64,000 nucleotides of DNA from Octopus vulgaris. Lineage: Eukaryota. The stretch lies in assembly GCA_951406725.2 (NCBI GenBank), contig OX597816.1, positions 18,228,001 to 18,292,000 on the forward strand, in the 5' to 3' direction. Below the pieces are notes generated by a model, which saw only the letters and a program-made list of their open reading frames with translations, was not told where the DNA came from and did no database searches. Made by a program: the position numbers and the translations under genes. Below are positions 5,971-62,460 of this stretch, piece after piece. Every line of letters begins with the position of its first letter. The first letter of the stretch is position 1.

Positions 5971-6502
5971 TTATTGCTTATTTAGCTTGGGTTCGAATTT
6001 ATCAATAAAATTCTTTTCTCTGATTTTCCTCTCGATTTCACTTGGGCTGTGTAATTTGTAGAATGGAAATATTATATATATTTTCCGACCACATGTTGCT
6101 AGGTGGTTACTCAAAGGTATCTGACGGACCTCTGGGTCTCTAATCTGTTGCCGGTGTACACGTGAGCGTTCTAATAGTGCGTTTCCCGTCTGACCTACAT
6201 ATATTTCTTCACAATTTGGGCATTTGATGCAGTAAATTAAATTTCTGCTTTTGCAGTTCATATTCGCGTTTGTGAATATTTTCCCGGTTTTTGTGTTTAT
6301 ATATTGACCGGTATGTATGAATTGGCATGTGCCACATCGGCTATCATTGCATTTAGATACCGTGAATGTTTGGTCTTTGTTGCTGAGGTCAAATTTTGCC
6401 TTTGTTAGTAATGTTTTCAAGTTTTTAGGCTGTCTTTTACTAAGCACCATAGCTCGATCCTTGATTATGTCTTTTAATTCATTACTTTGGGCAATGATTG
6501 GT

Positions 6503-60598: not shown

Positions 60599-60985
60599 TT
60601 TTACTCTTTTACTCTTTTACTTGTTTCAGTCATCTGACTGCGACCATGCTGGAGCACCGCCTTTAGTCGAGGAAATCGACCCCAGGAATTATTCTTTGTA
60701 AGCCTAGTACTTATTCTATCGGGCTCTTTTGCCGAACCGCTAAGTTACGGGGACGTAAATACACAAGCATCTGTTGTCAACACACAACACACACACACGT
60801 ATGTATAGATATACATATATACGACGGACTTCATTTAGTTTCCGTCTACCAAATCCACTCACAAGCCTTTGGTCGGCCCGAAGCTATAGTAGAAGACATT
60901 TGCCCAGTGGGCCACGCAGTGACACTGAACCCGGAACCATGTGGTTGGTAAGCAACCTACTTTCCACACAGCCACTCCTGAGCCT
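60599..60985 (-). mobile_element. SINE family A, full length
   Basis: Complete head and tail. Confidence 0.9.
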
Positions 60986-61402
60986 ATGTATATCAACTAA
61001 TCTAACGCCTCCATAATAATTCTAATAGAGAACCAAAACCAGAAATTTTCAAGGGGAAGCCGAGTTGCTTACATTTACTTTAGTAATTAACTGTTGCGTA
61101 TTTTATCGATACCGCATAGGGGAATGTGAATGCCGATTTCGGCTAACTTAAACTCAAAACACGAAGAAAGATGAAACACGGCTAAGCATTTTGTCTGTCG
61201 CGGTAACGATTCCACCGATCCAAGGCCTGACCATCACTATAATAATCTGTCTACTTCAAGCGCGATTACATGTACCCCAGTGTTCAACTGGTGTTTATTT
61301 TACTGGCGAATACTTCCGCTAAACAATTGCAGCTTCGAAGGTGTTTATAAGCCATTTAAGAAACACAAAAACCGTTAGATTCAATTCAACATTTAAATTT
61401 AA

Positions 61403-61453
61403 TTTGCTAAAATATTTTCGTCGCTTTAAGACAGCGACCTGTTCACTGACAAA
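61403..61453 (-). ncRNA. Hammerhead ribozyme with G3-C8 core variant (predicted), copy 1
   Basis: UUUGUCA-GUGAACA-G-GUCGCU-GUCUUAA-AGCGAC-GAAA-AUAU-UU-UAGCAAA. Confidence 0.6.
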
Positions 61454-61464
61454 ATTCCATGCTG

Positions 61465-61495
<31 letters not shown>

Positions 61496-61633
61496 CGGAG
61501 ATGTACTTGCATAGCGAGTGACTTGATCTGAGATCGTGTGCTGGAACGAAAACAATTGCAGCGTGGAAGGTGTTTATAAGCCATTTAAGAAACACACAAA
61601 AACCGTTAGATTCACTTCAACATTTAAATTTAA

Positions 61634-61684
61634 TTTGCCAAAATATTTTCATCGCTTTGGGACCGCGACCTGTTCACTGACAAA
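61634..61684 (-). ncRNA. Hammerhead ribozyme with G3-C8 core variant (predicted), copy 2
   Basis: UUUGUCA-GUGAACA-G-GUCGC-GGUCCCAAA-GCGAU-GAAA-AUAU-UU-UGGCAAA, with a 7-bp stem I and palindromic AAUAUU stem III. Confidence 0.62.
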
Positions 61685-62460
61685 ATTCCGTGTTTTTGTA
61701 TGTTTCTTAAATGGCTTATAAACACCTTCCACGCTGCGATTGTTTTCGTTCTAGCACACGATCTCAGTTCAGGTCACTTGCTATGCAAGTACATCCCCGT
61801 AAGATAACACAAAAGCAAGTGAAACACGGCATATAAACAAGGTTCATAGTGCATCGCTCAGCAGTGCGTTAAACGCACTCAAGAGAAACTGGATGACTGA
61901 GACAAAACTGCAATAACAATAATTTAGGAAGCTGACACTAAAGAACCGTAGAATTCAATGTCATAGTAATTCTAATATTAGAGAACGTTGCCAGAAATTT
62001 AATCGTACGTTGTTAAATTTTGCTTTCAAAGAAACACATGGGGTGAACATTATAGAGACGATACGGGATAGAGTGCCACATCGTAAATCATAGAAATTTG
62101 GAGTAAAATATATGGACATGAGCTCCTATACGGAAATCAATTGAGCAGAACAATATTTTCATAAAAATATATATCGAAGATATATATTCTCAAGAAATTA
62201 GATTAATTCAAACATCAAGTTTAAACATCCAAATAATGTTTGGCTATCAATTTGCGAAAAACTCTGCATCTTACTTTCCGTTTTGATTGAATCACGTCAA
62301 CTTTATAAATAAATCAAATAAACCCAAAACAGTGATTCAGAATTCGCTTTGAGACCATTGAACAATCAATAAATATATTTCAAATTTCGATTATATATTC
62401 TACTGGAAACGTTATTCAAGTGCAAACACCGCATTGTTGGTAGAAATCTGCCGTTTATAT

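Follow-up and report, generated by a model that had tools for sequence, protein, structure and literature searches.

Truncated terminal repeats of a Penelope-like element in Octopus vulgaris carry a predicted minimal hammerhead ribozyme with a natural G3-C8 core pair

The locus described here raises the question of whether a hammerhead fold in which G3 and C8 stand in place of the usual C3 and G8 is a ribozyme at all and, if so, what kind of element carries it. Our analysis of the window, the whole stretch of 64,000 nucleotides of Octopus vulgaris DNA in which the fold lies, points to a truncated, partly inverted terminal-repeat (pLTR) insertion of a Penelope-like element (PLE), with a minimal type I hammerhead whose G3-C8 pair is shared across the lineage and was likely under selection for weak, assisted self-cleavage. 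We put the probability of this reading at about 0.6; its parts are held with different degrees of confidence, as set out below.

The two direct minus-strand copies of the fold that the earlier note reported are both present in the window, at a spacing of 231 nt (2 matches to a 20-mer, against 0.01 expected; Table 1). For copy A the description given there is exact (core GUGAACA, extra G, both stems, GAAA, AAUAUU, and U17), and stems I and II are present in the RNAfold minimum free energy (MFE) structure. The description does not hold for copy B, where stem I reads UAGCAAA instead of UGGCAAA, leaving a C·A mismatch adjoining the core; the MFE structure of this copy is a different fold. Copies A and B are probably inert, dead passengers of the insertion.

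Table 1. Features of the composite insertion, with positions in the window
Feature	Position	Strand	Details
Hammerhead fold, copy A	61634..61684	-	Based on sequence, fold, and family and sister-family comparison
Copy A, stem I	61684-61678 / 61640-61634	-	UUUGUCA/UGGCAAA
Copy A, core letters	G3 61677, C8 61672, A9 61671, extra G 61670	-	
Copy A, stem II	61669-61665 / 61655-61651	-	GUCGC/GCGAU, G10.1·U11.1 wobble
Copy A, GAAA	61650-61647	-	
Copy A, palindrome AAUAUU	61647-61642	-	
Copy A, predicted cut site	61641/61640	-	After U17
Hammerhead fold, copy B	61403..61453	-	Same G3-C8 core, stem II perfect
Copy B, stem I damage	61408	-	G>A
Copy B, predicted cut site	61410/61409	-	
Full pLTR-plus-tail unit, 202 nt	61491..61692	-	Ends at the family's distal fixed 3' end
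Second, shorter pLTR copy	61321..61464	-	Ends at the family's proximal fixed 3' end, near unit position 143
5'-inverted copy of the unit's 3' half (unit positions about 90-200)	61692..61806	+	Creates the fold-back
(TA)n microsatellite	61467..61493	.	Between the direct copies; usual flank of the G3-C8 family
First 31 codons of the PLE ORF	61491..61584	-	ATG at 61584, MAYKHLPRCN...VHLRN

A resemblance to a hammerhead could in principle have arisen by chance in the untranslated region of a repeat; the fold energy of copy A is ordinary (RNAfold z, -1.55), and an Rfam scan of the window returned no hammerhead. However, Rfam also returned no hammerhead for sister copies with a canonical core, so its blank on the window is uninformative, and canonical CUGANGA/GAAA cores stand at the homologous position in sister families. 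A relaxed descriptor that accepts any Watson-Crick 3-8 pair has copy A as its sole match within the 64-kb window and gave 1 match in 40 Markov resamples of the same length. Chance is thus hardly credible, and the fold in the window is very probably a hammerhead homolog: of the PLE-type minimal type I class, with a compensatory swap that a CUGANGA descriptor would miss, as had been anticipated.

The 202-nt unit differs from the family majority at 6 positions and the shorter copy at 10 over 146 nt. Inverted arms are present as earlier described, but measure 115 nt at 92% (61489-61603 / 61692-61806) rather than 111 bp. No TSD was found for the composite in the window. Elsewhere in the window, positions 5974-6366 on the minus strand hold part of a GIY-YIG endonuclease that belongs to another PLE family (25% identical to the endonuclease of the sister ORF described below; E, 8.5e-7). 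A SINE-like repeat that is common in the fetched loci occupies 60620-60990 and is one that we take to resemble octopus SINEs, and the left flank at 61034-61302 has a likeness to other dispersed repeats of the window (about 10 weak matches).

The insertion had been taken for a non-coding Penelope-dependent element. This is not supported: what makes up the unit is a pLTR together with the opening 31 ORF codons of a protein-coding PLE, shortened at the 5' end. Because long copies carry it on into the ORF, the copies in the window are pLTR remnants of a coding element, and RT and GIY-YIG are absent from them. The 31-codon start resembles, when compared by eye, the N-terminus of an intact sister ORF, and its frame runs on in frame in the longer copies L114 and L115. 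Remnants of RT, a CX3CX2C linker, and GIY-YIG lie between two unit copies in L105 and adjoin the unit in L103, L107, L110, and L113 (GIY-YIG in the last as PF01541; E, 3.7e-5); the RT/EN segments of these remnants are 42-69% identical to those of the intact sister ORF. Pfam recognised no RT family in the natural RT fragments, in which the RT motifs were identified by eye and by homology. In long copies such as L105, L103, and L113, RT is followed by a C-terminal GIY-YIG between pLTRs, and every long copy seen is broken. Long ORF-bearing copies, mostly G3·G8, form a cluster at about 0.6-7.4 Mb of contig C16 in genome G000 (L101, L102, and L105-L113). The translations also contain a CX2-5CxxC linker and two cysteines inside GIY-YIG, features that define the Neptune/Nematis type in the accessible text of PMC8557442. 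Judged by linker and cysteines, the source is an EN+ PLE of the Neptune/Nematis type.

The repeat unit, of about 200 nt, is present in high copy number (1,012 candidates), and its copies have the structure of PLE insertions. Their 3' ends are nearly uniform, with 75 of 80 pieces stopping at one of two fixed sites (41 and 34); an inverted piece occurs in 33 of 59 other loci; and TSDs of at least 10 nt were found at 12 of 30 loci compared with 4 of 870 controls. The tail, inversion, and (TA)n bias set out for PLEs in the available sections of PMC8557442 are matched by the unit copies, except that the G3-C8 family has a tail of about 60 nt and not 30-40; the two fixed ends also agree with the pair of internal RT start sites described for an anole PLE in the available text of PMC11167929. 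The copies would have arisen by target-primed reverse transcription begun at either of two fixed positions within the element, accompanied by 5' truncation and by inversion. Longer copies have a branch-point and acceptor-like sequence upstream of the hammerhead (168 exact matches), which may be an intron end; no splice donor for it was identified in L007, L022, L024, L062, or L105. In these five loci, about 1.7 kb of microsatellite-rich sequence extends from the ORF end to the acceptor-like site (in L105, 6700-8480), and many short copies start exactly at this site just upstream of the hammerhead. The common upstream flanks of L061 and L063 reached no coding parent.

The G3-C8 swap seen in the window is the norm for the whole family. 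Genome-wide, exact matches to the core 19-mer number 6,459 with G3-C8 and 223 with G3·G8, and the box consensus is GUGANCA, with G3 and C8 replacing the C3 and G8 of CUGANGA; stem I has 7 bp in the family as it has in copy A. Among 88 copies that were not chosen on the core, G3 is present in 85 and C8 in 62, while the 18 with G8 are mostly hand-picked loci of contig C16; U4 G5 A6, A9, G12 A13 A14 A15.1, and U16.1 H17 are kept in 94-100% of these copies, and C11.1 in 70. A genome search for a 34-nt C3-G8 version of the family's own stems gave 0 matches. A sister family retrieved by protein alone, with an RT 55% identical and intact 1,312-codon frames, has a C3-G8 motif (read by eye) at the homologous pLTR site and the same two 3' ends; a descriptor requiring A9 gave no match on the sister loci. 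One very young sister PLE family (L116-L145, e.g., L120 and L121; pLTR motif in L146-L175) has copies that are 99% alike, with 1,312-codon open frames, and a hammerhead with C3-G8, C9 rather than A9, and C or U at H17; older relatives carry A9. Canonical C3-G8 patterns gave 4,700 matches versus 5 in controls, and another gave 254 versus 0. A canonical-core family with the box CUGAAGA (L177-L205), in which stem I pairs poorly beside the core in most copies, is possibly a decaying ribozyme. When positions 3 and 8 were left free, 36 of 49 matches had a Watson-Crick pair there (20 G-C and 16 C-G); of the remaining 13, one was C·C and none G·G, the other 12 being mostly single transitions.

Searching for other G3-C8 loops yielded an older family with the core GUGACCA, six copies of which are 52-68% identical to a young copy. 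When a tree was built solely from the sequence that follows the core, G3-C8 copies of both ages fell into one clade (support, 0.996). Because this downstream-only tree joins all G3-C8 copies, the swap is, on the evidence of their sequences, a single old evolutionary event and not many. A pLTR-only tree of 107 young copies places the G8 copies nested among C8 copies, at a poor resolution that allows no dating.

Comparison of the older with the younger family shows which parts of the fold were kept as the rest diverged. N7 has changed and loop II has been replaced, the other core letters being kept; the stem III palindrome has gone from AAUU to AAUAUU, and stem I from 6 bp (GUGUCA/UGACAC) to 7 bp (UUUGUCA/UGACAAA), with a bulged form in between. 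Neither stem I nor the palindrome was part of the patterns that retrieved the old copies. An alignment of 24 rows picked by hand gives 96.7% pairing for stem II, including one covarying G-C/A-U pair, and 60.8% for stem I, the latter value partly due to misalignment of the older family; since the patterns fixed the core, the 3-8 column of this alignment is circular by ascertainment. Preferential conservation of the core among copies, which the earlier note had proposed as a check, is hardly visible: among young copies, the core is scarcely more conserved than the flank. This comparison is itself not discriminating because young copies decay neutrally, and it is the between-family comparison that discriminates.

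These patterns of conservation bear on a rival reading that accepts both the swap and the descent of the fold from a PLE hammerhead, yet takes catalysis to have been lost or to be dispensable, with the stems persisting through protein binding, splicing or promoter context, or slow decay. We regard this as unlikely, though it draws on several observations. The ORF-bearing G3·G8 copies of contig C16 have remnants that are 95-97% alike and 3' flanks that are mostly unrelated, so a G3·G8 source was inserted repeatedly without a 3-8 pair. In the youngest sister family, which is highly successful, C9 replaces A9 in 84 of 100 of the matches listed, and another family with a canonical core has a poorly paired stem I. 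As reported in the accessible portions of the respective papers, hammerhead (HHR) mutants were without effect on insertion in vitro (PMC11167929), and Naiads thrive without canonical HHRs (PMC8557442). RNA reads of a related organism (three raw runs and one contig run) likewise offer no cut-site ends: each raw run covered the unit with 1,311-1,840 reads, which came from both strands, and no pile-up of ends at the cut site was seen in three RNA-seq runs, whose libraries are unstranded and fragmented and weak for this purpose; the available text of the anole study (PMC11167929) likewise records no end pile-up. On the other side, two transversions on one branch that restore exactly the 3-8 pair are hard to explain without selection on active-site geometry. 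Apart from N7, which is free to vary, the rest of the core has been kept along with stem II and the palindrome across a flank divergence of 30-45%, and G3·G8 copies are a minority (223 of 6,682 matches).

We therefore favor the reading in which the 3-8 G-C pair is kept by selection for weak, dimer- or protein-assisted self-cleavage in source elements. Cleavage of the source RNA would fall 3' of U17 and would depend either on the palindrome-mediated pairing of two hammerheads or on chaperoning of the fold by the PLE protein. That source elements have retained cleavage activity seems to us rather probable from these comparisons. We are more hesitant, at slightly less than even odds, about a natural G3-C8 lineage that is catalytically active, in which a mismatch valley would have been crossed by two transversions and cleavage then selected through thousands of insertions.

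The presence of two direct copies 231 nt apart, each with a palindromic stem III, also suggests a different kind of element: a separate, non-autonomous, retrozyme-like one whose copies in the window would be cut as an in-cis dimer, releasing a 231-nt RNA or circle. Animal retrozymes derive from pLTRs, according to the available part of a recent preprint (bioRxiv 10.64898/2026.07.22.740005), and short non-coding source copies are conceivable because most copies are short. However, the unit runs into the PLE ORF in long copies, two direct hammerheads were found near each other at 0 of 59 other loci, and stem I of copy B is broken. When the transcript of the whole element is folded, the arms pair with each other into a long hairpin whose loop contains copy A, and a constrained dimer has an energy of -50.8 kcal/mol versus -55.3 for two monomers, which is 4.5 worse. 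Among the joints listed in RNA reads (15 of 23), all are strand switches and none is head-to-tail. Such an element is very improbable, and the in-cis pairing of the two window copies that had been envisaged is disfavoured by the stem I damage, the fold-back, the energy, and its absence from the 59 loci. By analogy with the accessible accounts in PMC4209133 and PMC6765202, pairing of both pLTRs within a complete element, or of separate RNAs, would be a more plausible route to a dimer.

The family of the favored reading can be placed among known systems. It is like published PLE minimal hammerheads in its pLTR position, the extra nucleotide between 9 and 10.1, G10.1-C11.1, the palindromic minimal helix III, and its many solitary truncated copies, and like Penelope of D. 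virilis in that a sequence resembling a splice acceptor immediately precedes helix I. It differs in the core (GUGANCA here, CUGANGA in the published hammerheads) and in the extra nucleotide, which is G rather than the consensus H; the only 3-8 covariation reported for the published PLE hammerheads is U3-A8. Natural U3-A8 hammerheads are documented in the accessible parts of Perreault et al. 2011 (PMC3088659) and, for the Schistosoma Cercyon PLE, of PMC4209133, and are likewise the outcome of a natural compensatory change at the 3-8 pair. U3-A8, however, takes two transitions, keeps the pyrimidine-purine order, and has a U·G wobble as a possible intermediate, whereas reaching G3-C8 requires two transversions by way of a mismatched intermediate and leaves the order reversed. 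As an engineered variant G3-C8 is known (accessible text of PMC11167929, PMC8495972, and PMC3884650), and in the anole PAc HHR the change C3G/G8C partly restores cleavage in vitro; cleavage by the anole PLE hammerhead needed PLE protein (both in the available portion of PMC11167929). The core change is identical to that of our family, and PAc also shares the two internal RT start sites and hence the same "tail" structure; here, unlike in the engineered variant, the swap occurs naturally and has become fixed across thousands of copies, and the family has the CX2-5CxxC linker of Neptune/Nematis, whereas PAc belongs to Penelope/Poseidon. The non-LTR retrozymes described in the available part of the preprint cited above are similar in that they, too, are short, carry type I hammerheads, and have a relationship to pLTRs, but no tandem arrays were seen in our family, whose copies bear inversions and TSDs and represent the ends of a coding element left after truncation. 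We found no natural G3-C8 hammerhead in the searchable literature, a scope that lies outside Lunse et al. 2017 (on PLE hammerhead variants) and Przybilski and Hammann 2007, nor in the searchable supplement of PMC4209133. Within that scope, natural G3-C8 is a new natural variant of the PLE hammerhead and a predicted ribozyme.

Hammerheads occur in nearly all PLEs, cleave slowly in vitro, and were not required for insertion in one assay. A fixed natural G3-C8 pair would confirm the 3-8 tertiary pair evolutionarily, beyond U3-A8, and it means that searches based on CUGANGA undercount such ribozymes. If the lineage is indeed active and the swap has arisen repeatedly across genomes, a whole class of GUGANCA hammerheads would be invisible to current descriptors and to Rfam. 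At homologous sites the genome holds a natural allelic series, from C3-G8 and C3-G8 with A9C through old and young G3-C8 to G3·G8, with which selection on catalysis in these elements becomes directly testable.
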